A DNA stretch of 64,000 bases from Patescibacteria group bacterium (GCA_018969615.1 JAGWYA010000002.1:3070-67069); one strand, 5' to 3'. Shown: positions 7,600 to 37,344, counted from the first letter of the stretch. Numbers and translations: made by a program. Notes: generated by a model from the letters alone, not told the origin.

Positions 7600-8000
7600 A
7601 AAAAACAAAAGTGTATTTTTTGGAGCATAAGAACCCGAGGATCTAAAAATACACTTTTGTTGCAACTTTAGGCTTATTCCCGCCTACTGCCCACTGCCTA
7701 CGCGCTACTCCCTACTTGGCGAATGGATTCAGAACCCATTTGCGAAATAGTTTCTAGGCGCGTTGCGAGGAAAAATGGAATAGCTCAAGAAGCAACGACG
7801 AGATCGCAGCATGAGCTGCCTCGAGGAGGAGCAACGAAGGGCTATTCCATTTTAACCGCAACCCACAGGGATAGGGTCAATTTTATTTATACCTTCGTTA
7901 CTCGTCAGAAAGGTAGCTACAGCTACGATTTCTTCCTCGCGCCTTACTCTAAATAAAATTGACCACTATCGCGCCAGTAATCTATTTCGCAAATGGGTTC
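7600..8000. repeat. About 400-nt non-coding region with four nested/serial inverted repeats; candidate structured RNA or decayed element
   Basis: Inverted repeats: caaaagtgtatttttt (7606-7621) / aaaaatacacttttg (7645-7659); aaaatggaatagc (7773-7785) / gctattccatttt (7840-7852); gtcaattttattta (7875-7890) / taaataaaattgac (7953-7966); outer pair gaacccatttgcgaaatag (7734-7752) / ctatttcgcaaatgggttc (7982-8000). The last pair overlaps the final codons of the M23 peptidase gene. Confidence 0.5.
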
Positions 8001-8980: not shown

Positions 8981-9098
8981 CGCGGTCGTCCAATCTTTCA
9001 AAAAAGACGCGAGCGTCCTTGCTTTATGGAGTTGTTGACGTAAGATATCAATAATATCGATAGCGTAGCATGTGCCCCGTGCCCGCTCAATACCACCT

Positions 9099-10955
9099 AT
9101 GCCACAGCGCTCCCATCCTTCACCGCTCAATACAACCCAGGAACAAGCGGTCCGCCATTCCGGAGGACCGCTTTTGATCGCCGCCGGCGCCGGATCGGGA
9201 AAAACGAAAACGCTTACGAGCCGGCTTTTGCATCTTTTGGAGACCGGCGTCGCTCCGCAGGCGATCATTGCGATCACGTTCACCAACAAAGCCGCGAAAG
9301 AAATGAGGTCGAGAATAACGAATAATGAATTAGGAATAACGAACGGGGCGACTGATGAAAAAAAGAGCGGCGTAATTCATAATTCGAAATTCATACTTCC
9401 ATTTATAGGAACGTTCCACGCGCTCGGCGTCCGCATCCTGAAAGAAGAAGCGCACTGGGTGGGACGCACATCACACTTCACGATCTTCGACGACGAGGAT
9501 AGCGCGAGCCTGATCAAATCGATCCTGAAAGAACTGCAGCTCTCCAAGGACCGCTTCAGTCCGTACGCCGTCATCGGCCAGATCTCACGGATCAAGAATG
9601 AATTGATCAATGTCGATGAGTACGCGGACGAAGGCCGCTATGAACACACGATCGCGACCGTCTACCGGAAATATAATGAAACACTCCTGCACAGCAACGC
9701 GTTCGATTTTGACGATCTCATCGAGAAGGTCGTCCGCATCTTCCTTGAGCATCCCGAAGTGCTCGCCAAATACCGCGCCCGCTGGCAGTATGTTCTCGTC
9801 GATGAGTTCCAGGACGTGAACACGAACCAGTACCTGTTCGTAAAACTGCTCGCCCAGGAGCACAAGAACATCTTCGTGATCGGCGACGACGCGCAAAGCA
9901 TCTATGCGTTCCGCGGTTCCGATTTCCGGAACTTCCTCAATTTCGAAAAGGACTGGCCGGATGCGAAGGTGATCCTGCTGACCGAGAACTACCGTTCCAC
10001 GAAAAATATCATCAACGCCGCCTCGGCGCTCATCAAACATAATTCGTTCCAAAAGCCGAAGGATCTCTGGACCAGCAACCCGGAAGGGGAGCTGATCAAC
10101 GTTATGGCGTTCCAGAACGCCGAGGAGGAAGCGGTCTCGGTCGCCCAGCGGGTCCGCGAAGCGCTCGGCGGCGGCGAATCTCCGAAAGAGATCGCGGTCC
10201 TGTACCGTACGAACGCGCAATCCCGCGCGCTCGAGCAATCGCTCATCAGGAACAACATTCCGTACGAGATCTACGGCGGGCTGAAGTTCTATGCCCGCAA
10301 GGAGATCAAGGACATTGTCTCCGCGATCCGGTACGCGTTCAATCCGAAGGACCGCTCCGCGATCGACCGCATCACGAAAACGTTCAATAAAGGCCCGCGC
10401 ATCGCGCTTCTGGAAGCGCTTCCGCGTCTTGCCGAAGAAAGGCTGTCGCTCGTTGAACTGATCCAATATTTCCTTGAAGAGACCCGCTACACCGAATTCC
10501 TCGCCCTTCATTTCAAAAATCCCGATGAACGCCTTGAGAACATCAAAGAACTGATCCAATTTGCCGCGAGCTTCAACGATCCGCATGATTTCATCGAGCA
10601 GGTGACGCTGTTATCCTCGCTCGACGGCCGGCCGAAACTGCAGGAGAACGCGGTGAAACTGATGACGATCCATCTGTCCAAGGGCCTTGAGTTCGACCGC
10701 GTCTTCATCGTCGGCGCGAACGAAGGACTGCTTCCGCATGAACGCTCAATGATAAAGAACGATGACCTCGAAGAAGAGCGGCGCCTGATGTATGTCGCCA
10801 TAACCCGCGCCCGGAAACATCTCACGATCAGCTTTTATGATCTGCCGTCGCGGTTCCTCGGCGAACTGCCGCCGGAACTCATCGCATTCACGAAAGTCAG
10901 CAGTTACGGCGCCGAAACCCGCGACTGGGATGATGAAACGATATACTTAGAATAA
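9099..10955 (+). CDS. uvrD: UvrD/PcrA-type superfamily-1 DNA helicase carrying an in-frame AT-rich insertion between motifs Ia and Ib
   Basis: N-terminus PLNTTQEQAV...LIAAGAGSGKTKTLTSR (Walker A); motifs TFTNKAAKEM, GTFHALGVRIL, VLVDEFQDVN, VIGDDAQSIYAFRG, YRS, VTLLSSLDGRPK...LMTIHLSKGLEFDRVFIVG. The ORF track starts at GTG 9072; ATG 9099 matches the canonical N-terminus. Confidence 0.85.
   Translation: MPQRSHPSPLNTTQEQAVRHSGGPLLIAAGAGSGKTKTLTSRLLHLLETGVAPQAIIAITFTNKAAKEMRSRITNNELGITNGATDEKKSGVIHNSKFILPFIGTFHALGVRILKEEAHWVGRTSHFTIFDDEDSASLIKSILKELQLSKDRFSPYAVIGQISRIKNELINVDEYADEGRYEHTIATVYRKYNETLLHSNAFDFDDLIEKVVRIFLEHPEVLAKYRARWQYVLVDEFQDVNTNQYLFVKLLAQEHKNIFVIGDDAQSIYAFRGSDFRNFLNFEKDWPDAKVILLTENYRSTKNIINAASALIKHNSFQKPKDLWTSNPEGELINVMAFQNAEEEAVSVAQRVREALGGGESPKEIAVLYRTNAQSRALEQSLIRNNIPYEIYGGLKFYARKEIKDIVSAIRYAFNPKDRSAIDRITKTFNKGPRIALLEALPRLAEERLSLVELIQYFLEETRYTEFLALHFKNPDERLENIKELIQFAASFNDPHDFIEQVTLLSSLDGRPKLQENAVKLMTIHLSKGLEFDRVFIVGANEGLLPHERSMIKNDDLEEERRLMYVAITRARKHLTISFYDLPSRFLGELPPELIAFTKVSSYGAETRDWDDETIYLE
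9311..9396 (+). mobile_element. Roughly 87-nt AT-rich MITE-like insertion inside uvrD, in frame (encodes about TNNELGITNGATDEKKSGVIHNSKFILPF); the ends are homologous to the ends of the 10946-11365 cassette
   Basis: Left end gagaataacgaataatgaattaggaataacgaac matches ttagaataaggaagtatgaataaggaatcaggg at 10946. Right end ggcgtaattcataattcgaaattcatac matches ggccgtaattcctaattcgaaattcatg at 11331 (15-nt exact core taattcgaaattcat). Left and right ends are imperfect inverted repeats of each other (acgaataatgaattagg vs reverse complement tcgaattatgaattacg). Confidence 0.5.
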
Positions 10956-11365
10956 GGAAGTATGAATAAGGAATCAGGGAAAATAAGAAACTTTCAGGAC
11001 CTCGATGCATGGAGAGAAGGGCATCTCTTGGTTTTAGAGACCTATAAGGTCACAAAAAAATTCCCCAGGGAAGAAATTTTTGGATTGATAAGTCAGATGC
11101 GGCGGTGCGCGGTATCAATTACTTCTAATATTGCTGAAGGATTCAGTAGGCAGTCCTACAAAGAAAAGTTGCAATTTTATTCAATATCGCAAGGATCGGT
11201 CACTGAACTCCAAAATCAACTGCTTATATCAAAAGATGTGGGCTATATGGACGAAAGTGAATTTCAAAAAATTTCCGAACAGTCGATAAAAGTACATAAG
11301 ATCATAAACGGCCTGATCAGGCATTCTAAGGCCGTAATTCCTAATTCCTAATTCGAAATTCATGA
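10946..11365 (+). mobile_element. About 420-bp AT-rich cassette with imperfect terminal inverted repeats (gaat[a/t]aggaa-type) carrying a four-helix-bundle protein gene; it exactly fills the uvrD-rsmA intergenic space
   Basis: Base composition is visibly lower in GC than both neighbours. The left end contains the uvrD stop codon and the right end abuts the rsmA ATG. Homologous miniature copies lie at 9311-9396 and 37253-37340. Confidence 0.5.
10962..11351 (+). CDS. Four-helix-bundle protein (23S rRNA intervening-sequence protein family / Avd-like, PF05635/TIGR02436-like)
   Basis: 129 aa. SD aaggaag then ATG. Sequence (FQDLDAWREGHLLVLETYKVTKKFPREEIFGLISQMRRCAVSITSNIAEGFSRQSYKEKLQFYSISQGSVTELQNQLLIS) matches the conserved core of this family as I recall it. 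The gene is AT-rich relative to the genome. Confidence 0.7.
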   Translation: MNKESGKIRNFQDLDAWREGHLLVLETYKVTKKFPREEIFGLISQMRRCAVSITSNIAEGFSRQSYKEKLQFYSISQGSVTELQNQLLISKDVGYMDESEFQKISEQSIKVHKIINGLIRHSKAVIPNS

Positions 11366-12183
11366 GCCAATACCTGGGGCAACATTTTCTGAAAAATAAA
11401 ACCGCCGCGCGCAAGATCGTGAACGCGCTTGCCATCAAACCGGGCGATACCGTGATCGAGATCGGCCCGGGCAAAGGAGCGCTGACTGGCGATCTTCATC
11501 GCGCCGTGACGAATGCCAAAGGAAAACTTATCCTTGTCGAGATCGACCGGGATATCGCCGTCACACTTCATGAAAAATATTCATCGGATCCGGTCGTGAA
11601 GATCGTGAACGCCGATGCGCTGACCGCACTGCCTGAGGTCATTGCCGGGCTCGAAGATCGGCCCTACGCCATTATCGGCAATATTCCGTATTACATCACC
11701 GGGAAGCTCCTGCGCACCATCGGCGATCTCCCGCATCTTCCGCAACGCACGGTTCTCATGATCCAAAAAGAAGTTGCGGAACGAGTCTCTGCGCGGCCGC
11801 CTCGCATGAATCTGCTTGCCGCCGCCGTACAGCTGTGGGCTGAACCGAAACTGCTCTTCACGCTCTCTCCGGAGGATTTCGATCCGCCGCCGCAGGTCAA
11901 TTCCGCGGTCATCAGTCTTGGAAACCGCCCGGCGCAAGCCGATGAGCACGATCGTGATGCGTATTACCGCCTGCTCCATATCATCTTCAAGCAGCCGCGG
12001 AAAACCCTTCTCAATAACCTCGCCGAAGGGGCTTCCCAGACAAAATCAGAACTTGAAGAGCTCATCGCACCCCTCGGATACGACCAGAAAACACGCCCCC
12101 AGGAGCTTTCCGTCGACCGGATCAGAACTTTGGCATCACTGTTTAAAGAAAAGGGTATTGAGATCCCCTCTCTCCGTTCATAA
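11362..12183 (+). CDS. rsmA: 16S rRNA (adenine1518/1519-N6)-dimethyltransferase
   Basis: 273 aa; LGQHFL start, SAM-binding VIEIGPGKGALT, conserved NIPY motif (IGNIPYYIT). Confidence 0.9.
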   Translation: MSQYLGQHFLKNKTAARKIVNALAIKPGDTVIEIGPGKGALTGDLHRAVTNAKGKLILVEIDRDIAVTLHEKYSSDPVVKIVNADALTALPEVIAGLEDRPYAIIGNIPYYITGKLLRTIGDLPHLPQRTVLMIQKEVAERVSARPPRMNLLAAAVQLWAEPKLLFTLSPEDFDPPPQVNSAVISLGNRPAQADEHDRDAYYRLLHIIFKQPRKTLLNNLAEGASQTKSELEELIAPLGYDQKTRPQELSVDRIRTLASLFKEKGIEIPSLRS

Positions 12184-12250
12184 CCGCTCCCGAACAGCCA
12201 CTTATACACCCTTATTCTATTGTTCTTCACGAAGAAAAGGAGATATAATA

Positions 12251-13084
12251 GTGACAGATGTCGATCTGTGTCAAATCAGCCTTTTTGAGACGCTGATCAC
12301 GTCAATGACAATGGGGAAGGCACTGCTTGCAACAACTATTGTAGGGATCGCCCTCGTCGGCGCAGTCTTTTTGATACAAAAAAACAACGTCCCTACGCCG
12401 GCATCCGATGCGGCACAAACATCAGGAGCGAATAACATCGCCTCTTCTCAACCGTTCGTCGAAAAAGCACCGATCGACCAGCTTGCGGCGCTCACCCCGG
12501 GCACAAACCTGACCCAAGAATTCGGTGACGTTCTTGCGCAAGAGATCAGCAATGGAAATCCGGGTGGGCCTACAAACCTTAATGGACAAAATTCGATCGG
12601 CGTGCCAAACGCAGATACCTTTGCACAAAACCTTATCAGTCAGGCGGTTACAAAGTTCGATCCCTCAAAACTTTCCCCGGTCGTTAATGATTCCGATCTG
12701 CATATTATCCAAGATAACAGCAAGGCTGCGGTTATGAATTATGTCAGCCAACTTCATGCGATTGTCGTCGATGAAGCGCATGCGATTCCTTCTGGAGTTG
12801 TTTCAGATAATCCGACCATTGATCAGGTCACAACGCTCGTGCCGATCTATAAGGATATGCTCACCAAAGTCTTTGCCCTTTCCGTACCAAGTGTCGCTAT
12901 CGACATCCAAAAAAAAGAATTGGAATTGCTTATGAAAAAGGCGTATATTCTTTCGGCGATCGCAAACTATAAGAACGATCCGGTTACCACTATTCTCGTT
13001 TCCCAAGAGCTGGTCACTGTCGATCAAGAATTCAGCGATCTTTCAAATTCCGTAAAGGCGCTTATTCAAAAATATTCAGCATAA
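12251..13084 (+). CDS. Hypothetical membrane-anchored protein (first gene of the T4SS-like cluster)
   Basis: GTG 12251 with SD aaaggag at 12236-12242 (ORF track 11816..13084; the upstream part overlaps rsmA). N-terminal TM (ALLATTIVGIALVGAVFLI), Asn/Gln-rich extracellular region. Confidence 0.5.
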   Translation: MTDVDLCQISLFETLITSMTMGKALLATTIVGIALVGAVFLIQKNNVPTPASDAAQTSGANNIASSQPFVEKAPIDQLAALTPGTNLTQEFGDVLAQEISNGNPGGPTNLNGQNSIGVPNADTFAQNLISQAVTKFDPSKLSPVVNDSDLHIIQDNSKAAVMNYVSQLHAIVVDEAHAIPSGVVSDNPTIDQVTTLVPIYKDMLTKVFALSVPSVAIDIQKKELELLMKKAYILSAIANYKNDPVTTILVSQELVTVDQEFSDLSNSVKALIQKYSA

Positions 13085-13087
13085 AAC

Positions 13088-14665
13088 ATGCGCTATAAGA
13101 ATATACAAAAGATTATTGCGGGAATCCTTATAGGAACACTATTCTTCCCTCAATTAAGCGCTCTTCAGGCGCCGGCACCAAAAGCTCACGCTGTCTTGGG
13201 CGTAGGCGATATTACATTTACTGATGTGATCATGGACCCGACCACGCTTCTCTATTATTCAGATATGGTGACGGCCACTGATCTCAACTCCAGCGCAAAT
13301 ACAGCTTCATGGGCAACAAAAATATTAGAACTTGCAAAACAGGTCGCCTATGCCGCTTTCAAAGCCGCGATCCTCGATCAACTCGTGCAGGCGCTTATTA
13401 ATTGGATAAACAATGACGGCAAAGGACCGATCATCGCCGATTGGAATCAATTCTTCTATAATGCCGAAAATAACGCTGCGGGCGCGTTCATTGACGGACT
13501 TTCCGGAGGTGTCCTTTGTTCGCCATTCAACCTCCAGGTCCAACTTTCACTTGCGCCGGTACAGAATTTTAGCGATGTCACCTGTACGCTTAATCAAGTG
13601 ATCGGCAATATTGATAGCTTTATAAGCGACTTCCGCAATGGAAGCTGGCTTGCCTATCAGCAGATCTGGGACCCTCAAAATAACTTCTATGGTGCGGCCA
13701 TGATCGCCCAAGATGATCTGTTGAAACAAGAGTATAGCGCCGTCAATACATCACAAACCGAAGGAATAGCCGGACAAGGGTTCCTGTCCTTTACAAAATG
13801 CGATTATACGCCAGATCCTAACGGATCATATGTGCAAGTAGGAGGAAATTACATTCTTGCAAGTACTAATAATGCCAGCTCTCGATATTCAAAATCATGT
13901 CACGTTACCACGCCAGCTCAGGTCGCCGTTGAAGCGACAAAACAAGCACTGGTTGATGTCGGGATCGGGAATATTATAAACTCGCAGGATCTTTCCGCAT
14001 ATCTTACGGCGATCTTCAATGCGGCGATCAATCGATTGAAAGTAGCGGCAGCGAACGGTTTAGTTGGCCTTCTTTCGGACGCAACGCAAGGGGTGCATGT
14101 CAATCCGGTCTTCCCCTGTGCCGGAATTACCGGGCAGGCGTTTACCGCATGCATGCAATCGGTCAACTCTGAAAAGAATCTGGCGACAAGCTATCAGGAT
14201 CAGAGCAACACACTGGTTACCAGCGTGCTTGATGTTCGCCAGCAGATCAATGATACGCTTACCCAGGCGATCGCCCTCGAATCGCCGTATGTCGATGCGC
14301 TTACTCAGCTTTCAGCATGCCAGGCAAGCGCTACCGCAACACTCGCGACCGAACAGGGAATTCTCAATTCGCTCCAAGATTCACTGTCAACAAACCAAAC
14401 TTATCTTGATACCCTCAACGGTCTTTCAACGCCGATCGTCACTGCAACCAGTTCAAGCGTAACCGCGGATGATCTGGCAAAGATAAGCGCCATAGCCTCA
14501 GCTGCGACCGCAGCCGCAAATAATATCGGCGACGCTAACGCCGCTCTTCAAGATGCGAAAAACCAGCTCCAAACGATCCAAGCGAACGTCTCGGCGAATC
14601 TCCCGGGGATCCAAGCCCAGCTTCTCTCCTGCCCGGTCATAAGCGCAACAAGTACAACGCCTTAA
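13088..14665 (+). CDS. Large secreted hypothetical protein (signal peptide; Ala/Asn/Gln/Thr-rich)
   Basis: 525 aa; signal peptide MRYKNIQKIIAGILIGTLFFPQLSALQAPAPKAHA; no catalytic motif recognised. Confidence 0.5.
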   Translation: MRYKNIQKIIAGILIGTLFFPQLSALQAPAPKAHAVLGVGDITFTDVIMDPTTLLYYSDMVTATDLNSSANTASWATKILELAKQVAYAAFKAAILDQLVQALINWINNDGKGPIIADWNQFFYNAENNAAGAFIDGLSGGVLCSPFNLQVQLSLAPVQNFSDVTCTLNQVIGNIDSFISDFRNGSWLAYQQIWDPQNNFYGAAMIAQDDLLKQEYSAVNTSQTEGIAGQGFLSFTKCDYTPDPNGSYVQVGGNYILASTNNASSRYSKSCHVTTPAQVAVEATKQALVDVGIGNIINSQDLSAYLTAIFNAAINRLKVAAANGLVGLLSDATQGVHVNPVFPCAGITGQAFTACMQSVNSEKNLATSYQDQSNTLVTSVLDVRQQINDTLTQAIALESPYVDALTQLSACQASATATLATEQGILNSLQDSLSTNQTYLDTLNGLSTPIVTATSSSVTADDLAKISAIASAATAAANNIGDANAALQDAKNQLQTIQANVSANLPGIQAQLLSCPVISATSTTP

Positions 14666-14682
14666 AAGACTAACTTCAACCC

Positions 14683-16707
14683 ATGAATCGCGATCGATCC
14701 TCAAAATATCTTCTTCTCCTTACCGGCGCGCTATTCGTTGGATTAACGCCGTATGCACATGCTGCGAGCGTGGCAACGGCCGTTGGAACCCTGATCGGTG
14801 GAGTTACGTTGGGCGCTGTCCTGCTTCCGATGTCTCTTACGGCGTATCTTTTCGGATACATCGCAAGCTGGTTCGTTACGATCGGCGGCACGCTGACCAA
14901 TTGGTCGCTTGATCTTAACAGCCAGTTATTAAATAGTCCGATCGTTCAAACTGGATGGGTCGCATCCCGCGATCTTGCCAACCTTGGTTTTGTCCTTGCG
15001 ATCATTCTAATTGCTTTCGTTACGATCGTGCGCTATGAATCCTATGATTCAAAGAAAATGCTGGTCCGCCTTATCAGCGCAGCTCTTCTCGTTAATTTCA
15101 GCCTCGTCATTGCTGGCGTCTTCATTGATTTCACCGGTATTACCACAAATTTCTTCCTCAGTAATGCAACAAGTGGAGACCTCACGTCCGTGGGACAAGA
15201 ACTTACCAGCGCCTTTAGAGCACAAACGCTTTTTCAGCAAAACAACAGTGAATCGACGATCCAAAACTATGTGCAGGGCTTGTCGAACGATGTAAATAAA
15301 AAGATTGTCTTCCTTGCAACGGAAACATTCGTCGGCGTCTTTACCAGCCTGACCGCGATCTCTCTTCTTACGATAGCGGCAATGCTTTATATTCGCTATA
15401 TTGCGCTTACGATCCTGCTGATCCTTGCACCGCTTGCGTGGCTGATGTGGATCTGGCCTGATCTTGAGCGGTATTGGCATGAATGGTGGAGCTCATTCAT
15501 GAAATGGGCGTTCTTCGCTCCGGCGGTTTCATTCTTTATCTATCTTGCGATCAAGATAGCAACTGATTATGCCTCTAAAACTCCAAGCGCTATTGCAATT
15601 CCGGTCACAGGAACTGACTCGCTTGTTAACCTTGTTCAAAACTTCGGTTCGATCTTTGGACAAATGCTTGCGGTTCTCGGGATCCTCTATGGCGGACTTT
15701 ATGCCGCGAACCGGATGGGTATCGCCGGAGCCGGATTCGGTATCGCTATGGCAGGGAAAGTAAAGGGATATGTGACCGGAGCGCCTGCAGTTGCCGGGGG
15801 ATATGTCATGGGTGGTCATGGAGTCGGCGGATTAATGAATCGCGCAAGCACCGCAGTGACCGGAAAAACAGTCACTGAAAATCTGAGAGGGGTCACTGGA
15901 AATAGGCTCTTGCAAAGCATCCCGGTCGTTCGAACTGCGATGCAAGAAGCGAACAAGAACCTTGGCGCATTCGATGAGAAACGCATTGATGATCTTATGA
16001 AGCATTACAATTCCCTTGATCGAGAGACTCGGGCAAATTCCGGCGTAGGTGGTTTTGCCGATCCGGTTGAGCGCGCTGCATGGATGGCATCGATGGCGAA
16101 GAATAATCAGTTAAAAGATGCTAAGACGAAACTTGGTGAATCTCGTTATGACAGCATTGCGCAAGAGACTCTAAAAGTGGGCGGGCGGACTATTTCAAAA
16201 GAACTCCTTTCGCGCGATCCAGAACTTGCGCGCTTCAAGGTTGATCCTGGAGCGAGCGAGTGGAAAGGAAAGAGTTCTTCAGAAATTCGCGCTGCTCAAA
16301 AGCTTGAAGTGGCAAAGGCCTATAAAGATATTGCACAGGAAGCGGTTGAAAATATTTCTGCAGCTCAATTCGTAGAAAATCCGGAAAACCTTGCCCAGAT
16401 CCGCACTTCTTTCCTCGTTGCGTTCGGCGAGAAGCGAAGTCATGAAGATAAGGAGCTTATGATGTCCAAGTTAGGCGATCAGATCAAAAACCTTCAATCG
16501 AATGTTACAACTTTGTCGAGCGAACAGCGCGGTCTCTTAAACAATCTTTCGGCAAAATTAAACTTTATGGCAAAGAGCCCCTCATGGACTCCGTATGTAA
16601 CCCAGGATCTTTTACCGTTCCTTAAAAAAGGAGTTCGCAGAACGCTCGAGGGGATCGTAGAAGAGGAGGAAGAGACAAAAAATACTAAAGAAAATACTGA
16701 GAAATAG
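14683..16707 (+). CDS. Polytopic membrane protein, VirB6/TrbL-like (T4SS inner-membrane component) candidate
   Basis: 674 aa; signal peptide followed by at least six hydrophobic helices and a long hydrophilic C-terminal tail; located just upstream of PrgI-like and VirB4 genes, as in Gram-positive T4SS loci. Confidence 0.4.
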   Translation: MNRDRSSKYLLLLTGALFVGLTPYAHAASVATAVGTLIGGVTLGAVLLPMSLTAYLFGYIASWFVTIGGTLTNWSLDLNSQLLNSPIVQTGWVASRDLANLGFVLAIILIAFVTIVRYESYDSKKMLVRLISAALLVNFSLVIAGVFIDFTGITTNFFLSNATSGDLTSVGQELTSAFRAQTLFQQNNSESTIQNYVQGLSNDVNKKIVFLATETFVGVFTSLTAISLLTIAAMLYIRYIALTILLILAPLAWLMWIWPDLERYWHEWWSSFMKWAFFAPAVSFFIYLAIKIATDYASKTPSAIAIPVTGTDSLVNLVQNFGSIFGQMLAVLGILYGGLYAANRMGIAGAGFGIAMAGKVKGYVTGAPAVAGGYVMGGHGVGGLMNRASTAVTGKTVTENLRGVTGNRLLQSIPVVRTAMQEANKNLGAFDEKRIDDLMKHYNSLDRETRANSGVGGFADPVERAAWMASMAKNNQLKDAKTKLGESRYDSIAQETLKVGGRTISKELLSRDPELARFKVDPGASEWKGKSSSEIRAAQKLEVAKAYKDIAQEAVENISAAQFVENPENLAQIRTSFLVAFGEKRSHEDKELMMSKLGDQIKNLQSNVTTLSSEQRGLLNNLSAKLNFMAKSPSWTPYVTQDLLPFLKKGVRRTLEGIVEEEEETKNTKENTEK

Positions 16708-16710
16708 CAT

Positions 16711-17808
16711 ATGAATCCCTCTGAATCAAAAACGTTCCAGGAAAAGTTCTCTTTACTTCCCGATAAGATCAAAGAATGGCTTTCTTCAGAAGAGCTGGTC
16801 TATATCATCGGCGATATTGAGACCAAGCTTGGTTTGAGCGACGAAAAAGTACTTGTCATTCCAAGTCTTATCTTGCGCCTTGTGGTACAAGACATTGAAC
16901 CGCAGGATTTCACCAATACGCTTTCCCAGGAACTTGGCGTTTCTTCATTGATCGCAAAAACGATCGCTGAAGAGGTTGAAAAAAATGCATTGCGTCCGAT
17001 CGAGGGGGAGTTGCGTTCAAAGACCGGAATTGAAACAAAGCTTATCTACCATCCTCGTGCAGCAGAAAAAGAAGAGGCTCCAAGACCATCAGTGGCCACA
17101 GCTAAGACCGCAGAGGGTCCGGCATCACTCCCTCAGGAAACTCCGCGTCCGGCAGTTCAGGCAGCATCTCAGCCGAAGCCAGTCATGCCAGCAACCCCTT
17201 CTCCGCGCCCGATCTCGCCGCTCACCTTCACCGCCGGTCCGCAAAAAGAAATAAAACTTCCGGAACCTCCGAAGATGCCGTCTTCGGGAACTCCACAGAC
17301 AAAACCGGCGGCGCCAAGCCAGCCGATCCCGCCCGTTTCTCCTATACCATCCAGGATGCCGACCGCGGCACCAAAACCACAGCCGATTCAGCGGCCTATG
17401 CCGTCTCCTGCGGTAGAGCCGCAACCCGCAGCAGCGCCATTTATACTCCATCAGGAGGCAAGTCCGACCGTCGCGCCGTCGATCGCTCCGCAGCAACATA
17501 TAACCTCTGCGCCGAAACAAAGCCTGACCATGAAGATACAGAATTACTACCAATCCATGGGAACGGCCGAGCGTCCGATCTCAAAACCTGTCTCGGTCCA
17601 AACAGAGATCCCAATCGCGCCGCGCGCTTCAACGCCCCCTGCCGCACCGGACATAAAGCCGACTCCCCAAACCGAACAGGCGCGCGTCGTTCATTATAGC
17701 TCGTTCCGAACTCCGATAACTCCGGAAGGAACGACAAAGATCGAGCCGAAAGCACCAACGCCAAAAGCACCGAATCAGAACGTAGTTGATCTCAGAAAAT
17801 TCATGTAG
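16711..17808 (+). CDS. Hypothetical Pro-rich protein
   Basis: 365 aa; a structured N-terminal roughly 100 aa followed by a long PxxP-rich low-complexity region. Confidence 0.45.
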   Translation: MNPSESKTFQEKFSLLPDKIKEWLSSEELVYIIGDIETKLGLSDEKVLVIPSLILRLVVQDIEPQDFTNTLSQELGVSSLIAKTIAEEVEKNALRPIEGELRSKTGIETKLIYHPRAAEKEEAPRPSVATAKTAEGPASLPQETPRPAVQAASQPKPVMPATPSPRPISPLTFTAGPQKEIKLPEPPKMPSSGTPQTKPAAPSQPIPPVSPIPSRMPTAAPKPQPIQRPMPSPAVEPQPAAAPFILHQEASPTVAPSIAPQQHITSAPKQSLTMKIQNYYQSMGTAERPISKPVSVQTEIPIAPRASTPPAAPDIKPTPQTEQARVVHYSSFRTPITPEGTTKIEPKAPTPKAPNQNVVDLRKFM

Positions 17809-17817
17809 GCGTTTGCC

Positions 17818-18327
17818 ATGCAATTCCAGGTCCCTCAATTCATTGAAACAGAAGATAAGATCGTCGGACCGCTGACCCTGACCCAATTCCTGTATGTTGC
17901 GGCGGGCGGCGGGGTCTGCTTTATTCTCTTCTTCTTCCTTCAGACCCCGCTCTGGATCTTTTTTGTGCTTCTGATCATGCCGGCATCCGTTTCGCTTGCT
18001 TTCGTGAAGATCAACGGGCGCTCGCTTCCGGTCGTACTCCTTGCGGCGCTCGGCTACTACTGGAAACCGCGGTTTTATATTTGGCAGCGCGAAGAAGAAG
18101 CGGTTCCGACCATGCAGCTTCCTAAAATAGGCACGGGGGGTAGCACGCGTTCATTGCTTGATTCTCTGGTCGATCAGTTAAAAACAAGCAAGAACCCGAT
18201 CCCGAAACGCGAAAAAGCGATCGCACCGGCCATCACCGACCGCGTCAAAAGCAGCAAAGAACGATTTGAAACGCTCCGGAAGATCACAGGGGAGGCTGAA
18301 ACAGCCCGCCGCGTTGATTACCGATAG
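17818..18327 (+). CDS. PrgI/VirB3-like small membrane protein of T4SS
   Basis: 169 aa; N-terminus MQFQVPQFIETEDKIVGPLTLTQFLYVAAGG followed by two TM helices and ...KPRFYIW, resembling the PrgI family; placed immediately upstream of VirB4, as prgI-prgJ. Confidence 0.5.
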   Translation: MQFQVPQFIETEDKIVGPLTLTQFLYVAAGGGVCFILFFFLQTPLWIFFVLLIMPASVSLAFVKINGRSLPVVLLAALGYYWKPRFYIWQREEEAVPTMQLPKIGTGGSTRSLLDSLVDQLKTSKNPIPKREKAIAPAITDRVKSSKERFETLRKITGEAETARRVDYR

Positions 18328-18375
18328 GAATATTTCGTTTCATACTTTTCGCGTTTCCCTTTATACTAATAACGT

Positions 18376-19041
18376 ATGGCAAAGTCCCAAGAATCACTGC
18401 CGACGCAGCAATTCATCGGCATCGAATCGATCGATGCCGGCGTCGTAAAGCTCAAAGGCGGCGCGCTCCGCAAGGTTCTTTTAGTGTCCGGGATCAACTT
18501 TTCCTTGAAATCCGAGGAGGAGCAGGGACTTATCACGTATGCCTTTCAGGGATTCCTGAACTCGCTTAATTTTTCAGTACAGGTCTTTGTTCATTCGCGG
18601 AAATTAAATGTTGAGGAGTATTTGCAGAAGTTCGGCGAGCGCGAACAGCAGGAACCGAACCAGCTTCTGAAAAACCTGATCGTTGAATACCGGGAATTCA
18701 TCAAATCGTTCGTCTCTCAAAATGCGATCATGCAAAAAACGTTCTTCGTGATCGTCCCATATGATCCGGTCGGTCTTTCGAAAACCGGAGCGGGCATCGC
18801 CGATACGGTCCTTGGATTTTTCAAGCCGAAAACAGCCCAAGCCCCCGCAGCAAAACCGGAAGATGCCGCCGAGACCTTAGAACAATTGGATCAGCGCGTT
18901 GACCGTGTCGTCAGCGGCTTGAATCAAGTGGGTTTGCGCGCCGTCCCGCTGGATACCGATGAGCTCCTTGAGCTGTTCTACAATCTCTATAATCCGACCA
19001 CGACCGAGAAAAAAGGCATTGAATTCACCGAAAAGAAATAA
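18376..19041 (+). CDS. VirB4/TraE-family N-terminal domain encoded as a separate ORF (split or frameshifted virB4, part 1)
   Basis: 221 aa. IGIESIDAGVVKLKGGALRKVLLVSGINFSLKSEEEQ resembles the N-terminal domain of Gram-positive VirB4 (PrgJ/TcpF-like). It stops at TAA 19039-19041, two nt before the ATG of the ATPase ORF in the +1 frame. Confidence 0.55.
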   Translation: MAKSQESLPTQQFIGIESIDAGVVKLKGGALRKVLLVSGINFSLKSEEEQGLITYAFQGFLNSLNFSVQVFVHSRKLNVEEYLQKFGEREQQEPNQLLKNLIVEYREFIKSFVSQNAIMQKTFFVIVPYDPVGLSKTGAGIADTVLGFFKPKTAQAPAAKPEDAAETLEQLDQRVDRVVSGLNQVGLRAVPLDTDELLELFYNLYNPTTTEKKGIEFTEKK

Positions 19042-19042
19042 T

Positions 19043-20755
19043 ATGGACAAGAACGTTACGAACATCATCGCCCCGGCGGCGATCCAAGTCGATCCGAACT
19101 ACCTGAAGGTAGGGGATAAATACACGAAAACGATGTTCATCTTTACCTATCCGCGCTATCTGACCACCGGCTGGTTCTCAGGGATCATTGATATGCCTGA
19201 ACTGCTCGATATTTCCATCTTCATTCATCCCGTCGAAACGACTCTCGCGCTCAAAAAACTCCGCCGGAAAGCGGCACAGGTTGAATCCCAGGTGATGGAA
19301 CGCCAGCAAAAGGGGCAAGTGCGCGATCCGATGCTTGAGACCGCCTATCAGGATATCGAATCGCTCCGCGATTCGCTTCAACAGACCCGCGAAAACCTTT
19401 TCAATGTCGGCGTCTATTTGACGATCTATGCGGATACAGTTGAAGCGCTCCATAAAATAGAAGGTAAGATCACTTCGCTCCTCGAAAGCCGCCTTGTCTA
19501 CGTAAAACCGGCGCTCTTCCAGCAGATCGAAGGGTTCGAGTCAACGCTTCCGCTCGGACAGGATAAGCTTGGCGTCTATAATCCGCTCAATTCCGGGCCG
19601 CTCTCTTCGATCTTTCCGTTCACCTCGGCCGATCTTACCTCGAACAGCGGGATTATGTACGGCATCAACCGCCATAATAACACCCTGATCATCTTCGACC
19701 GCTTCTCGCTGGAAAATGCGAATATGGTGATCTTTGCAAAGTCCGGCAGCGGTAAATCCTACGCGACCAAGCTCGAGATCATCCGCCTTCTAATGCTCGG
19801 CACGGATGTCCTGGTGATCGACCCGGAGAACGAATACGAGAACCTCGCCTCGGCGGTCGGCGGAAGCTATTTCCGCATCTCGCTTGCCTCGGAACACCAC
19901 ATTAATCCGTTCGATCTTCCGGTCGTTCCGCCGGACGAAGATCCGTCCGATGTTCTCCGCTCCCATATTGTGAACCTCGCCGGCCTTCTCAAGATCATGC
20001 TTGGGCAGATCACCTCTGAAGAAGACGCGCTTCTTGATCGCGCATTGGGCGAAACCTACGCTTCCCACGATATCGTTGCCGGCAAAGACTTCACGAACGC
20101 AACGCCGCCGCTTTTGGAAGATCTTCAAAAGATCCTTCAAAACATGGAGGGCGGTCGGGGACTCGCGGAGCGCCTCTATAAATTCACCTCGGGAAGTTAC
20201 GCCGGCTTTACGAACCAGCCGACGAACATCGATATTAAGAACCGTCTGATCGTATTCTCGATCCGCGATCTTGAGGACGAGCTCCGGCCGATCGCCATGT
20301 ATATCGTCCTCAACTTCATCTGGAGCCTGATTCGCGCCACGCTCAAAAAACGCGTGCTGGTCATCGATGAGGCATGGGTCATTATGAAACACGACGACGG
20401 CGCGACCTTCCTCTTCGGTCTCGTAAAGCGCTGCCGCAAATATTTCATGGGCGTCACGACGATCACCCAAGACGTTGAAGACTTCTTAAAATCACCGTAC
20501 GGGCGGCCGATCATAACCAACTCATCGCTCCAATTGCTTTTGAAGCAGGCCCCGGCATCCATGGACGTCATCACGAAAACCTTCAACCTGACCGAAGGCG
20601 AAAAAGACCTTCTTCTCCAGGCGAGCGTAGGCGAGGGGCTCTTCTTTGCAGGCCTCAATCATGTTGCGATCCAGATCATCCCGTCCTATTTGGAGGATAA
20701 GATCGTTACTACAAAACCGGAACAGATCCTCGAGCAGAAATCTACGCTCGAATAA
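19043..20755 (+). CDS. virB4: VirB4/TrbE/CagE-family T4SS ATPase, C-terminal ATPase domain (part 2)
   Basis: 570 aa; Walker A AKSGSGKSYATK, Walker B VLVIDEAWVIM, and the typical ITQDVEDF C-terminal region. Confidence 0.8.
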   Translation: MDKNVTNIIAPAAIQVDPNYLKVGDKYTKTMFIFTYPRYLTTGWFSGIIDMPELLDISIFIHPVETTLALKKLRRKAAQVESQVMERQQKGQVRDPMLETAYQDIESLRDSLQQTRENLFNVGVYLTIYADTVEALHKIEGKITSLLESRLVYVKPALFQQIEGFESTLPLGQDKLGVYNPLNSGPLSSIFPFTSADLTSNSGIMYGINRHNNTLIIFDRFSLENANMVIFAKSGSGKSYATKLEIIRLLMLGTDVLVIDPENEYENLASAVGGSYFRISLASEHHINPFDLPVVPPDEDPSDVLRSHIVNLAGLLKIMLGQITSEEDALLDRALGETYASHDIVAGKDFTNATPPLLEDLQKILQNMEGGRGLAERLYKFTSGSYAGFTNQPTNIDIKNRLIVFSIRDLEDELRPIAMYIVLNFIWSLIRATLKKRVLVIDEAWVIMKHDDGATFLFGLVKRCRKYFMGVTTITQDVEDFLKSPYGRPIITNSSLQLLLKQAPASMDVITKTFNLTEGEKDLLLQASVGEGLFFAGLNHVAIQIIPSYLEDKIVTTKPEQILEQKSTLE

Positions 20756-20759
20756 CCCC

Positions 20760-21128
20760 ATGAATAAAAATGCAAAGATAGGCATTATTGATGCGATCAT
20801 TATGACACTGCTTTGCATCAGTGCAGATGCCGCCCAGATCATTGCTGATCTCAGTATCGCTATTCCAGTTGTCGGTGAGGTACTGCCATTAGCTGCATGG
20901 GCGTATGGGCTTGCCATTTCCGGTATTGTACTTTTTTGGCTTATAATGAAAGGAGTGAGCACGAAGTGGTTCCTTGGGGGAGCGGGTATCGATCTTATAC
21001 CTTTTGTAAATATCTTACCGGGAACTACCGCAGCGATCATTGCAACGATCATCGAGGATAATCTTCCTGAGAAGACAAAAGCAGTGACATCCCTTGTATC
21101 AAAAGCGGTCAATCCATTGGAAAAATAA
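20760..21128 (+). CDS. Small hydrophobic membrane protein (122 aa), possible pilin-like/T4SS subunit
   Basis: ATG 20760 directly after virB4; two long hydrophobic stretches; no signal-peptidase motif recognised. Confidence 0.4.
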   Translation: MNKNAKIGIIDAIIMTLLCISADAAQIIADLSIAIPVVGEVLPLAAWAYGLAISGIVLFWLIMKGVSTKWFLGGAGIDLIPFVNILPGTTAAIIATIIEDNLPEKTKAVTSLVSKAVNPLEK

Positions 21129-21877
21129 TGACGATCATGAGAACTCATACTAAAACCGGATCATTCGCCGCCCATCATCGACTGGCATGGTTTTCGGCTA
21201 TTTTACTGCCTACTGCCTACTGCCTCCTTGCTCTGACAGCAAACGCACAAACCGCTCCCGAGTTCATGGTTAGTTGGAAGGCCCTCGACTATGTTCCTGC
21301 GGACTATATCGGAAAAACATTGCCGACTCAAACGACGCAAGTCGAAGCGGCATTTGATGTGATCGATCAAGGAAAGATCGTCGATGTTTCAAAGAATATG
21401 ATAAATTGGTATGACAACAATGCCCTTATCGCCGCAGGGATAGGATTAAAGACGTTCAAGTTAACCCCCAGCAGCACGCAAAGCGACACCATCCGGATTG
21501 CGGTCTCGAATTATAATGCCAATGGGGATATCTCCACCTCATTTTTGGTCCCGATCGTGAAGCCTGAAGTGGCTGTCAGCGTACCGACACCGACCGCAAA
21601 TCTTTATCGGAACCGCACCGCTCTTGCACCTCAGCCCTATCTCCTTGAAGCCCGGCCTTTCTTTTTCAATGCGACCTCACTCTCCGGACTTACATTCTCT
21701 TGGCAGGTAAACAATACATCACCAACAGGGAATCCGGGAAATCCCAATTTTCTAACGCTTGATCTCTCTTCTCAAGGAACCCCTCAAGAAACCGATATTA
21801 CGCTTTCAGCCGGAGTGACTAATACCGGTAACCAACTCGAACTTGGCAGTCGCATGCTTAATCTTATCGTACAATAA
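21128..21877 (+). CDS. Secreted hypothetical protein; the signal-peptide coding region contains a (TACTGCC)x3 heptanucleotide repeat
   Basis: 249 aa; start overlaps the previous stop (taATG); signal peptide AILLPTAYCLLALTANAQT; heptamer tandem repeat at 21205-21228. Confidence 0.5.
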   Translation: MTIMRTHTKTGSFAAHHRLAWFSAILLPTAYCLLALTANAQTAPEFMVSWKALDYVPADYIGKTLPTQTTQVEAAFDVIDQGKIVDVSKNMINWYDNNALIAAGIGLKTFKLTPSSTQSDTIRIAVSNYNANGDISTSFLVPIVKPEVAVSVPTPTANLYRNRTALAPQPYLLEARPFFFNATSLSGLTFSWQVNNTSPTGNPGNPNFLTLDLSSQGTPQETDITLSAGVTNTGNQLELGSRMLNLIVQ

Positions 21878-21885
21878 CCATACAT

Positions 21886-23022
21886 ATGATCCATTATTCC
21901 TTTTCCGGTATCCCTAAAAAAGTCGCGATCTCTTTTTTAGTTGCATTCCTTTCAGTATCACTGGCTGGTCTTGCTGCGGCTCAACAATATGTGCCGCCGA
22001 TCAGTGGAGGGCAATGTCCCGCCGGTTCGATCCCGGCAGGAACATATTCTGATGGCACGCCCCGATGCCAAGTTCAATCGACAACCCCTGCCGCATCCAC
22101 AGCCAATACCTCAACCTCTCAGTCGGGGGACATTGTTCCTACAACACTTGGTCTCACGCCCTCGGGCCTTGTTGGTGTAACTTGTCCAAATGGATATACC
22201 GTGAACTATGACCTATCTGGGAATGGCGGGCAGATCTGCTTGAAGAACGGCGCGCCGACTCCATCAGGTTATCAGGTCCAATCAAGTACCGATACCGTGA
22301 AAGGCACGCCTGTCAGCTCTTCCACTGCAGCAGCCTTTAATCCTTCCTTAGCGCCTACGACTATTTCTCAGCATGTCGATTCTTATGCGGTTAAATACAC
22401 TATCCCATGCCAACCGACTGCCGGAGGAACGTGTCCCGCCGAAAGTAATTCATCGCCTGCAGCGTATATCGTCCGCCTCTATCAATTCGGTCTGATGATC
22501 GTCGGCCTCCTCGCGTTTGGCGCGATCGTCTATGGAGCATTGAAGTATATTCTCTCCGCGGGGAACATGGCCGATCAGTCCGATGCAAAAGATCAGATCA
22601 CCCAGGCGCTCTGGGGCGTTGTCCTCCTTCTTGGCGCCTATACGCTTCTTTATACGATCAATCCGCGGCTCGTCAGTTTAAGTAATCCGGAGATCGTTCC
22701 TCTGAACGTCTCGGCACTTCAATCACCGTCAGGGAATGGAACGCCGGGAAGTCAGATCCCGACCGCTGCCGGTCCAGGAGGCGATCCGCTTTGCAAGTTA
22801 TATGTGAATTCGGGTATTAACATAAACCTCTCAACCTCAGCAGGAAATCTTGGTGGAACTCCTCAAGGCTGCATCCAGTGTGTATCAAACGCATCAGTAT
22901 CAGGCGGCACATGCCAATGTGATACTGGATATACAACCACTGCAGGAACAGATAATAATACTTGTGTTCCGCTTCCGGCTAAAGGACCCAATAGTCCGAA
23001 ATTAACAGCCCCACTTCAATAA
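21886..23022 (+). CDS. Secreted Cys-rich protein with an internal pair of hydrophobic helices (VirB2/TrbC-pilin-like hairpin)
   Basis: 378 aa; signal peptide; many Cys in both N- and C-terminal thirds; central FGLMIVGLLAFGAIVYGALKYIL - loop - LWGVVLLLGAYTLLYTINP. Confidence 0.4.
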   Translation: MIHYSFSGIPKKVAISFLVAFLSVSLAGLAAAQQYVPPISGGQCPAGSIPAGTYSDGTPRCQVQSTTPAASTANTSTSQSGDIVPTTLGLTPSGLVGVTCPNGYTVNYDLSGNGGQICLKNGAPTPSGYQVQSSTDTVKGTPVSSSTAAAFNPSLAPTTISQHVDSYAVKYTIPCQPTAGGTCPAESNSSPAAYIVRLYQFGLMIVGLLAFGAIVYGALKYILSAGNMADQSDAKDQITQALWGVVLLLGAYTLLYTINPRLVSLSNPEIVPLNVSALQSPSGNGTPGSQIPTAAGPGGDPLCKLYVNSGININLSTSAGNLGGTPQGCIQCVSNASVSGGTCQCDTGYTTTAGTDNNTCVPLPAKGPNSPKLTAPLQ

Positions 23023-23065
23023 CAAACCCCCTCTGACATGACTGAGCATTTGAACATAACTCACT

Positions 23066-24148
23066 ATGAACTGGCTTAAACTTATAAAATATCTGGTCAT
23101 TATCCTCATCATTGTGGGGATCGTCTGGTTAGTGCGCTTCTTCTTTTTCTCAACGCCGGCAGGCCAAAATATTTTGAGCGCACTTCTCCCGCAACAGGCG
23201 GCGCAGCCGGTTGCCACTTCGACCGCGCAACAACTCAACGCACTGACCTCGGAACCGATCTTCGATTACTGGGTCAGTACGAGCACGAATGCCGTCTTTT
23301 ATGCGACCGAAACGGGGCAGATCATGAAGCTCGCCAATGCGCAAACAATGCCGGTTACATCCCAGACCATCACGCGGCTTCATTCCATTGCCGGATCATA
23401 TGATGGCGCATACGCCGTTGCCGAGTTCAATTATCCGTCCCTTCCGCTTTTCAGCGTCCTGACCACCGCGAATAAAACCTGGCAGCCACTGCCGGTCGGC
23501 ACGATCGCCGCCGCGTGGTCGCCTGACAAAGATCAGCTGGCCTACCTCAGCAGTACGGCATTGAATATCCTGGATATGGCCACGAATAAGACTACTCAGG
23601 TCATGCCGCTGACCCAGGAAGAACTGGCTATGACATGGGTGACCGATTCGAAGATCGTTTTGAGCACGCTGCCGACCGCCCAACTGAATACCGAGACCTG
23701 GACCATCGATCCGGTGAAGAAAACGATCACGTCGTCCCTGGAGGCCCCGGGGACCGTCACAAACTGGTCGCCGGACGGAACGATGGGCATCATGCTGACC
23801 AACACCAATAATGCTCCGGTTACGAGCCTCATCGATCCGAACCAAAACCAGCTCTCCCAGTTCTCCTTCGTCACGATGCCGGAGAAGTGCGCGTTCGACG
23901 GAACTAAGATCTACTGCGCGATCCCCAAAAACATTCCAACCCAGGCAACGCTTCCGGATGACTTCTACAAAAAATCGGTTTACTTCGATGATGCGATCTA
24001 TCTGATCGATCTTTCCTCGGGCGGATTCACGCAGGCGCAGACCGGCTCGGCAAACCCGATCGATGCGACCCATTTGGAAGTCCAGGGCTCGGCGCTGCTC
24101 TTCATCAACCGCCTCGACAACAAGCTGTACTCGCTGACACTGCAGTAG
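23066..24148 (+). CDS. TolB-like/PD40 beta-propeller repeat protein, membrane-anchored
   Basis: 360 aa; N-terminal TM; repeated WSPDKDQLAY / WSPDGTMGIM motifs typical of PD40 repeats. Confidence 0.5.
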   Translation: MNWLKLIKYLVIILIIVGIVWLVRFFFFSTPAGQNILSALLPQQAAQPVATSTAQQLNALTSEPIFDYWVSTSTNAVFYATETGQIMKLANAQTMPVTSQTITRLHSIAGSYDGAYAVAEFNYPSLPLFSVLTTANKTWQPLPVGTIAAAWSPDKDQLAYLSSTALNILDMATNKTTQVMPLTQEELAMTWVTDSKIVLSTLPTAQLNTETWTIDPVKKTITSSLEAPGTVTNWSPDGTMGIMLTNTNNAPVTSLIDPNQNQLSQFSFVTMPEKCAFDGTKIYCAIPKNIPTQATLPDDFYKKSVYFDDAIYLIDLSSGGFTQAQTGSANPIDATHLEVQGSALLFINRLDNKLYSLTLQ

Positions 24149-37276: not shown

Positions 37277-37340
37277 TGAATCAGGAACAGGTCCGGTAAT
37301 GCCAGCTTCCTTATTCGCAATTCATGCTTCATAATTCATT
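37253..37340 (+). mobile_element. Roughly 88-nt AT-rich MITE-like copy of the cassette ends (gene-less), between tsaE and the polA 5'-3' exonuclease ORF
   Basis: Left end ttagaattaagaatactgaatagtgaatcaggaa matches ttagaataaggaagtatgaataaggaatcaggga at 10946 (26/34 identical). Right end ggtccggtaatgcc...ttccttattcgcaattcatgcttcataattcatta matches ggccgtaattcctaattcgaaattcatg at 11331. Confidence 0.45.
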
Positions 37341-37344
37341 ATAT

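Follow-up and report, generated by a model that had tools for sequence, protein, structure and literature searches.

The stretch of DNA analyzed here, 64,000 nt from a Patescibacteria group bacterium (GCA_018969615.1, JAGWYA010000002.1:3070-67069; referred to below as the window), carries between its uvrD and rsmA genes a compact cassette (10950-11361, ~412 nt, low GC) in which a single gene for a four-helix-bundle protein is bracketed by inverted arrays of a tandemly repeated heptamer. On balance we favor the interpretation of this segment as an intervening sequence (IVS)-type selfish hairpin cassette residing outside rRNA, the protein of which probably recognizes its own heptamer arrays. The designation was chosen because the segment has the cargo and the layout of an S23p-type IVS but not its location in a 23S rRNA gene.

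The cassette occupies the entire uvrD-rsmA spacer. Upstream lies the gene for a UvrD/PcrA-type helicase (9072-10955, + strand), identified by Pfam and NCBIfam matches and by alignment to its orthologues, and downstream lies rsmA/ksgA (11362-12183, + strand; TIGR00755, 198 bits for a cut-off of 171), both genes being co-directional. The GC content falls to 0.36-0.415 over positions 10900-11399, compared to ~0.49-0.63 in both flanks, with the host about 15 points above the cassette; this profile and the positions of the codons bear out the low-GC segment between uvrD and rsmA that a preliminary description, made from the sequence alone, had reported. The uvrD stop codon (TAA, 10953-10955) is located within the first left repeat unit, GAATAAG, in agreement with the placement of this codon inside the end sequence in that description, and the rsmA start codon (ATG, 11362-11364) immediately follows the last right unit, GAAATTC. 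The only long open reading frame (ORF) within the cassette is the one of 129 codons at 10962-11351 (+ strand), which also agrees with the single gene described before, and it begins and ends within the arrays, with its ATG (10962-10964) in the left one and its TAA (11349-11351) in the right one. No promoter, terminator, Rfam (at permissive thresholds) or PADLOC signal was detected for the cassette, and no rRNA was found in the window.

The ends of the cassette consist of four heptamers each. The left array (10950-10977, + strand; sequence, phased-GAAT scans and predicted fold) reads GAATAAG GAAGTAT GAATAAG GAATCAG, and the right one (11334-11361, - strand; sequence and scans) reads GTAATTC CTAATTC CTAATTC GAAATTC on the + strand, which corresponds to GAATNNN units on the - strand and was also recovered by repeat finding (families D5 and I14). 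The two arrays can be summarized as (GAATNAN)4 and (NTNATTC)4. The inverted ends and the end sequences quoted in the preliminary description are thus correct; on the other hand, its term "imperfect inverted repeats" holds for the orientation of the ends but not for their nature, as they are phased tandem-heptamer arrays and not simple repeats. The end motifs also recur in the window beyond chance, this being one of the checks suggested for them: GAATWAGGAA is present six times compared to 0.27 expected, and a phased-GAAT scan of the 64 kb detected exactly six arrays, whereas block shuffles gave an average of 0.13. These six arrays form three inverted pairs, corresponding to the cassette and to two gene-less elements. 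In the predicted fold of the cassette, positions 10957-10980 are paired with 11333-11361, and all three elements fold as hairpins made of helices of 5-6 bp with an interruption about every 7 nt.

A second heptamer type, CCTACTG/CTACTGC, forms two runs in the window (7682-7716 and 21203-21230, both on the + strand) without an inverted partner. The first run is in a spacer that separates convergent genes and the second in the signal-peptide coding region of an ORF (21128-21877). The array of period 7 at 21200-21235 was considered as part of an element and discarded, as it lies in a signal-peptide coding region and has no inverted partner.

The protein encoded in the cassette (10962-11351, + strand; ORF and profile matches) belongs to the family known as "23S rRNA IVS protein" or S23p, as previously claimed, with 128.7 bits for PF05635 (cut-off 33.8; E = 1.3e-37) and 119.3 bits for TIGR02436 (cut-off 24; E = 8.6e-35). 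A phmmer comparison with the structure of Xcc0516 (PDB 2GSC), a pentamer of four-helix bundles in the crystal, gave E = 8.4e-21 over residues 2-111. The length of 129 aa fits that of the family (about 110-130 aa), and the conserved family motif R-x3-S-x3-N-x2-E (PMC3936711) is present as R48, S52, N56 and E59 in ...MRRCAVSITSNIAEG... An identical protein is on record at NCBI, and the nearest homologues come from metagenome-assembled genomes (MAGs) of Patescibacteria. Only the PF05635 and bAvd profile families matched the protein, with no match to HUH/Y1 transposase-like families, and a relaxed Pfam scan of it returned no HEPN-like or other informative weak match. Comparison of the gene with its orthologue in the related locus L163 gave a pN of 0.089 and a pS of 0.75, therefore indicating strong purifying selection on the gene.

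The two gene-less copies announced in the preliminary description, at 9311-9396 and 37253-37340, were confirmed with essentially the same coordinates. The first one (9313-9399, + strand; arrays at 9313-9347 and 9372-9399 with a loop of ~24 nt; sequence, scans and hairpin fold) is located within uvrD itself, where its 87 nt contain no stop codon and are translated in frame as TNNELGITNGATDEKKSGVIHNSKFILP. When 22 UvrD orthologues were aligned, this site proved to be a hypervariable insertion position between TFTNKAAKEM and GTFH: the orthologues P0128, P0135 and P0138 have nothing there, and others have translated heptamer arrays, such as MNNESGIMNN...IHNSKFIIPF. At the DNA level the arrays inserted at this site belong to different dialects, with GAAT in the window and in L161, an ATTGACA type in L163 and an apparently GTAT-like type in L164, while L165 keeps a short remnant only. 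Gene-less copies contribute extra peptide segments to essential proteins, UvrD being one of them. Further lineage-specific in-frame insertions were observed around alignment columns ~418-472 and 640-663 in the UvrD orthologues P0171, P0177, P0183 and P0200.

The second gene-less element (37250-37337, + strand; arrays at 37250-37291 and 37296-37337; sequence, scans and a hairpin fold with z = -2.95) is located between tsaE (36761-37276, identified by a TsaE Pfam match) and the polA 5'-3' exonuclease gene (ATG at 37345), and its array encodes the C-terminal residues of TsaE, EIRIKNTE, and the stop codon. At two other loci, L013 and L034, a full cassette is found directly upstream of the homologous polA exonuclease gene. 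When the ORF is deleted from the cassette, the remaining ends can be aligned over their whole length with both gene-less elements, at 56-62% identity, largely in the heptamer cores. Regarding the genes around this element, the Pfam profile match of TsaE is split into two stretches around a strongly basic insertion, ...ALKSRKSRQRRGSRFAARRAPKAAKVKGH..., and DNA polymerase I is encoded by two ORFs with a 4-nt overlap, one for the 5'-3' exonuclease (37324-38211) and the other for the family-A polymerase domain (38208-39659).

For Patescibacteria, a scan of species-representative genomes provided 80 loci with homologues 59-79% identical, 81 with that of the window. A gene was taken as bracketed when some 4-mer was present at least three times in 7-nt phase on its left and the reverse complement at least three times in phase on its right. 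Phased inverted arrays bracketed the gene in 61 of the 81 loci, compared to 5 of 295 similarly sized control ORFs of those loci, and the period-7 identity of the flanks was 0.71, compared to 0.40-0.42 in controls. The duplex energy of the arms did not discriminate them from control ORFs; this measure was uninformative because the control flanks are GC-richer, and counts based on phased k-mers and on register were used instead. The consensus unit is G-[A/T]-A-T-N-A-N, and the core varies between loci, with GAAT in 48 of them by automatic call, GTAT in ~15 when the sequences were read, and GATTC, GAAA and GAATGGA among the others. The core changes on both arms in concert (GAAT/ATTC, GTAT/ATAC, GATTC/GAATC and others): complementarity was 0.93 at heptamer position 2, compared to 0.57 in between-locus controls, and 0.57 and 0.52 at the variable positions 5 and 7, compared to 0.33 and 0.29. 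On the protein tree, the GTAT type has several origins, with 9 changes, against a mean of 13.9 and a minimum of 11 when the labels were shuffled.

The remaining arrays of a locus have the core type of its cassette (33:2 in GAAT loci and 2:15 in GTAT loci; Fisher p = 4e-9). In all other inverted heptamer pairs that were found in the orientation of the element around a short ORF, the cargo was another PF05635 gene, and these additional cargos are divergent paralogues with dialects of their own, TGGAAGG in L016 and AAAATGA in L075, the latter locus also carrying a truncated copy. Most cassettes (61 of 73) have co-directional ORFs on both sides, at median distances of 25 and 24 nt, and the arrays constitute the intergenic spacers. 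The contexts in which the gene family is inserted include uvrD-rsmA, atpA-atpG, the upstream side of the polA exonuclease gene, accB-accC, nrdB-nrdA, cas6-cas4 and cmr2-cmr3, and also the 16S and 23S rRNA genes, as 23S_rRNA_IVP ORFs have been described in insertions of these two rRNA genes in the candidate phyla radiation (PMC11270868). Cassettes and neighboring genes of the Patescibacteria type were also observed in MAGs from binchicken assemblies titled "uncultured Gammaproteobacteria", "Pseudomonadales" or "Bdellovibrionales" (L002, L004, L007, L010 and others), the taxonomic labels of which look unreliable.

The association is found in other phyla as well. A tblastn search of plasmids detected homologues in cultured cyanobacteria and in Riemerella, and inverted heptamer arrays were present in six of the eight flanks that were read, with units entirely unlike those of Patescibacteria: GGGTGTA/TACACCC in Calothrix, AGGAGTC/GACTCCT in N. 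punctiforme, GGGAGTA/TACTCCC between nrdB and nrdA in N. edaphicum, AAAGGGA/TCCCTTT in Geminocystis, GGAGATA/TATCTCC between cmr2 and cmr3 in Picosynechococcus, and AAGGTTT/AAACCTT in Riemerella. The copy of Nostoc 7120, beside an ISL3 transposase, has the right-hand array only. The Xanthomonas orthologues of Xcc0516 are located between accB and accC within GGGAATC arrays, with GGGAATC GGGAGTG GAGAATC GGGAATC on the left, a stretch that includes the start codon, and CCCATTC CCCATTC TCGACTC CCTATTC on the right, after which comes the accC ATG. GGGAATC is highly enriched in Xanthomonas, with ~186 arrays in X. campestris of which 70-75 are in convergent inverted pairs, and neither a function nor a gene had been tied to these arrays (PMC4692102). 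Tandem 7-nt units in intergenic spacers, often extending up to a start codon, have been described (PMC4692102; PMC4679880). No paper making a general link between heptamer arrays and PF05635 was found in full-text searches of the literature, subscription journals and database annotations being outside this scope, and the cross-phylum coupling of both appears to be undescribed so far.

The PF05635 cassettes of L168, L169, L172 and L174-L176 split nrdB from nrdA, cas6 from cas4, cmr2 from cmr3, and accB from accC. As the family has been reported to be "associated" with cas loci (PMC3936711; PMC10910872), such operon-splitting cassettes may explain the published statistical association between 23S_rRNA_IVP and CRISPR-Cas loci.

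The uvrD-rsmA junction was compared in the contigs of the closest UvrD relatives, which were selected by protein search. Three of these relatives, L177, L165 and L178, have UvrD proteins (P0123, P0124 and P0126) that are mutually 92-94% identical, and they differ at the junction: L177 carries the same cassette as the window, whereas in L165 and L178 the junction is empty and consists of the GAATAG stop, 9 nt and the ATG. The same cassette, with a left array of ~10 units, is also present in the more distant L163 (P0139, 73% identical to the UvrD of the window). The junction of L161 (P0127) is filled by an unrelated cassette that encodes a 124-aa PDDEXK_3 protein and is bounded by different inverted ends (~30 nt), and those of L164 and L179 (P0125 and P0128) by an ORF of 145-154 aa without heptamers. 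As the junction is filled, empty or differently filled among relatives, the arrangement is not fixed, and this is the outcome of the second check suggested in the preliminary description, which concerned orthologous junctions and which, like the first, speaks for a dynamic element. The 9-nt spacer of the empty sites is replaced in the filled ones. These data demonstrate presence/absence polymorphism and not active transposition, and they are compatible with a change in either direction, gain or loss. As to L161, the PDDEXK_3 gene (PF13366) of its junction cassette (L161:2382-2892) is flanked by the inverted ends AATACGAATAAGATAAAATCATACGAACACC and GGTGTTCGCATAAAATTACTCTATTCGTATT, and the same locus carries upstream of uvrD a 119-aa PF05635 gene flanked by a simple inverted repeat without heptamers.

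The closest precedent for the cargo and layout is the IVS of rRNA genes. The helix-45 23S IVS of Coxiella burnetii has 428 nt, contains an S23p ORF and ends in a 28-bp stem cleaved by RNase III. Directly before its ATG are two or three tandem GACAGAT units and a degenerate GACAGAA, in strain-variable number, and an early proposal that regarded the IVS as a mobile element has been cited for it (PMC4990558). The cassette resembles this IVS in its size, which is within the ~0.4-0.8 kb of such elements, in its homologous PF05635 cargo, in having a single S23p ORF enclosed by stem-forming terminal inverted repeats (a predicted fold in our case) and in the tandem heptamers at the start codon, the ATG being contained here in four phased units; the 28 bp of the Coxiella stem correspond to 4 x 7 bp. 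It differs in being inserted between two protein-coding genes and not in helix 25 or 45 of the 23S rRNA, in the sequence of its heptamers and in a stem that is interrupted by mismatches, and excision by RNase III would apply to it by analogy only. Nothing comparable to the in-frame gene-less copy inside uvrD is described in the IVS papers examined.

In the mechanism that we propose, the cassette would be transcribed by read-through from the host operon, with its start codon, its stop codon and a Shine-Dalgarno-like AGGA provided by the arms. These arms would pair as an interrupted stem, with helices of 5-6 bp and a mismatch about every 7 nt, and the stem could be a substrate for RNase III as proposed by analogy with the homologous IVS of Coxiella and Leptospira. 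The oligomeric protein would then recognize arrays of its own dialect, including in trans those of the gene-less copies, acting as the master gene of the repeat family or as a maturase-like factor, and such recognition would be the reason for its conservation. Gain and loss would occur at the DNA level through hairpin- or slippage-mediated events and homologous recombination by the host, with no enzyme for that in the element. Both the recognition of the arrays by the protein and the movement of the cassette are parts of this proposal that we infer.

The logic of the cassette is closest to that of the REP/RAYT systems (REPINs, "REPtrons"), in which a single small gene lies between inverted copies of a repeat that is dispersed elsewhere in the genome as gene-less hairpin pairs; the protein folds are unrelated, as RAYTs are enzymes of the HUH/Y1 transposase family. 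In our case the gene is also flanked in inverted orientation by a dispersed repeat, the window containing one cassette and two gene-less pairs of a single dialect, and the dialect of the repeats matches the local gene, as does GGGAATC in Xanthomonas. Unlike RAYTs, the protein is a four-helix bundle without a known catalytic motif, and tandem heptamer arrays take the place of a single palindrome. The Rickettsia palindromic elements are gene-less palindromes found in frame in protein genes and translated as an extra surface peptide, and the uvrD element (9313-9399) is likewise palindromic, in frame, translated and absent from some orthologues, although its sequence family is unrelated, it belongs to another phylum and it has a gene-carrying relative nearby. 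Finally, the arrays share the use of 7-nt units in intergenic spacers with the tandem-heptamer families (cyanobacterial STRR-type, Xanthomonas GGGAATC and Beggiatoaceae TAACTGA); no gene was tied to the repeats in PMC4692102 or PMC4679880, whereas here they bracket PF05635 genes, the Xcc0516 orthologue included.

From these likenesses a wider reading can be put forward, which we consider possible but offer only tentatively: PF05635 proteins would be the "master genes" of tandem-heptamer families, each paralogue with its own dialect, and would form with them a selfish hairpin element that is autonomous while lacking a transposase. The families so covered, at the same tentative level, would be GAATNAN and GTATNAN in Patescibacteria, the STRR-like repeats in cyanobacteria and GGGAATC in Xanthomonas.

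Several observations weigh against the interpretation of the segment as a selfish hairpin cassette with an array-recognizing protein. The fold z-scores of the three elements are modest (-1.6 to -3). Within a locus, the complementarity at positions 5 and 7 of facing heptamers exceeds only slightly that of non-facing ones (0.57/0.52 compared to 0.45/0.47), and G.U pairs were not in excess over A.C at the non-Watson-Crick positions of the stem (62 and 74, respectively); therefore, selection on a sense-strand RNA stem is not demonstrated, and constraint at the DNA level or direct recognition of both arms by the protein would fit equally well. A match between five heptamers and the five subunits of the pentamer was considered and dropped, as the arrays have from 3 to at least 14 units across the loci. 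The Pseudanabaena galeata plasmid (L169, cas6-cas4) has its arrays in direct orientation, with ~14 AAAAGCT units upstream and ~10 AAAAGCC downstream. Furthermore, most loci come from metagenome assemblies, which are error-prone at repeats. The protein scan of the window, which covered 50 of its 62 candidate ORFs, detected no reverse transcriptase, transposase, integrase or recombinase in the element or in these 50 ORFs, and the lack of a recombinase or transposase adds to the points on this side. No target-site duplication was found when the filled junctions (window, L163 and L177) were compared to the empty ones (L165 and L178). Lastly, identity among the four-helix-bundle proteins of the window, L163 and L177 (78-84%) is close to that among their UvrD neighbors (73-79%); as both diverge to a similar extent, the polymorphism can be accounted for by vertical inheritance, combined with precise loss or allele exchange, no less well than by transposition.

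Part of this evidence agrees with a domesticated, non-mobile host module, in which the four-helix-bundle protein would be a host factor, such as an RNA-binding regulator, the arrays would be hairpins for cis-regulation or operon processing, and the differences between relatives would result from deletion and homologous allele exchange and not from mobility. The strong purifying selection on the protein would be equally compatible with a function beneficial to the host, the cassette is always sense-oriented and tightly embedded in the operon, and the parallel divergence of the protein and UvrD, as well as the lack of a recombinase in the scanned ORFs and of a target-site duplication, point in the same direction. 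In Xanthomonas, the regions holding GGGAATC arrays change less than controls between the two species compared, and 90% of the arrays lie between the same ORFs (PMC4692102). However, the gene family occupies unrelated sites, from uvrD-rsmA to the 16S and 23S rRNA genes, close relatives have an empty junction or a different cassette, gene-less copies are found within coding sequence, and the GC content of the cassette is well below that of its host. As scattered sites, empty junctions, copies within coding sequences and low GC are typical of selfish insertions, we regard the host module as unlikely.

Less probable still would be a non-autonomous DNA transposon with derivatives like miniature inverted-repeat transposable elements, the arrays being terminal inverted repeats for a transposase encoded elsewhere and the four-helix-bundle gene a passenger. 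Inverted ends, gene-less miniatures and filled and empty sites are what such an element would leave, and the missing G.U excess fits constraint at the DNA level; but there is neither a target-site duplication nor a transposase in the scanned ORFs, and the ends are repetitive arrays of variable length rather than clearly defined termini. Moreover, the ends differ wholly between lineages while the cargo is always PF05635, therefore the reverse of what functional ends with a passenger gene would be expected to show. A transposon with terminal inverted repeats in the usual sense was rejected on the lack of a target-site duplication and of a transposase in the scanned ORFs; the ends are inverted, but as repetitive arrays variable in both length and sequence. 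An integron gene cassette was likewise discarded, given that the arms are on both sides of the ORF, in place of a single downstream attC, and that no integrase was found in the scanned ORFs.

The preliminary description had also presented the protein as related to Avd, the accessory protein of diversity-generating retroelements (DGRs). The distant similarity was confirmed, with 32.1 bits for the bAvd profile and a weak similarity (1.2e-10) to PHROG 3206, "Avd protein of DGR", and the four-helix-bundle fold and a pentameric relative are further points in common. Membership of the Avd family was not, as the scores are below both curated thresholds (40 for bAvd; 22.3 compared to 80 for NCBIfam Avd, NF033474). 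The gene is located between housekeeping genes in the 80 homologous loci, a context different from that of DGRs, and the absence from the window of a reverse transcriptase, a transposase and a template repeat/variable repeat (TR/VR) pair was borne out by the 50 scanned ORFs and by a repeat search, in which no TR/VR-like long direct repeat pair appeared. The label "Avd" implies no link to DGRs and the cassette gene is not a DGR Avd, so a DGR remnant or accessory gene is very improbable as an explanation of the segment. Mere coincidence in AT-rich DNA of low complexity that surrounds an ordinary small gene, to which the AT-rich, imperfect arms and the modest fold z-scores could be ascribed, is refuted by the counts of arrays (six compared to 0.13 expected) and loci (61 of 81 compared to 5 of 295 controls), together with the concerted change of the arms and the recurrence of the layout across phyla.

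The remainder of the window comprises chromosomal core genes and a cluster resembling a type IV secretion system. This cluster (11816-24148), downstream of rsmA, is made up mostly of ORFs without a Pfam match and includes a PrgI-family protein (17818-18327) and a TraG/VirB4-like P-loop ATPase (18959-20755), which suggests a type IV secretion or competence-like apparatus; a weak TrbL_3 match was found at the equivalent place in L161. The longest inverted repeat of the window (52301-52347/52762-52808) has 47-nt arms, 79% complementary and 414 nt apart, lies just downstream of a tRNA-Arg(CCG) gene (52156-52228) and encloses a 102-aa Cys-rich ORF (52364-52672, - strand) without a Pfam match. Two other inverted pairs without heptamers were observed, one between pilB and ruvB (34832-34856/34972-34996; 25-nt arms, 96%, 115-nt gap) and the other between the genes for a beta-CASP RNase and an M23 peptidase (7731-7762/7970-8001; 32-nt arms, 88%, 207-nt gap).

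A structure has been solved for the S23p/PF05635 family, the homologues of which number in the thousands, yet its function is not known, and the tandem heptamer repeats abundant in cyanobacteria, Xanthomonas and other bacteria are likewise without a known function. These two puzzles have been treated separately until now, and they are joined here by a fixed layout, left array, gene and inverted array, which is found in Patescibacteria, cyanobacteria, Bacteroidota and Gammaproteobacteria. If the wider reading is true, gene-less derivatives of these elements would colonize intergenic spacers, rRNA helices and even coding sequences, and one multi-phylum system would account both for the puzzle of the IVS ORF and for the origin of heptamer repeats. 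If the protein binds the arrays, they would constitute together a new kind of repeat/protein selfish system, testable in culturable Xanthomonas or Nostoc.

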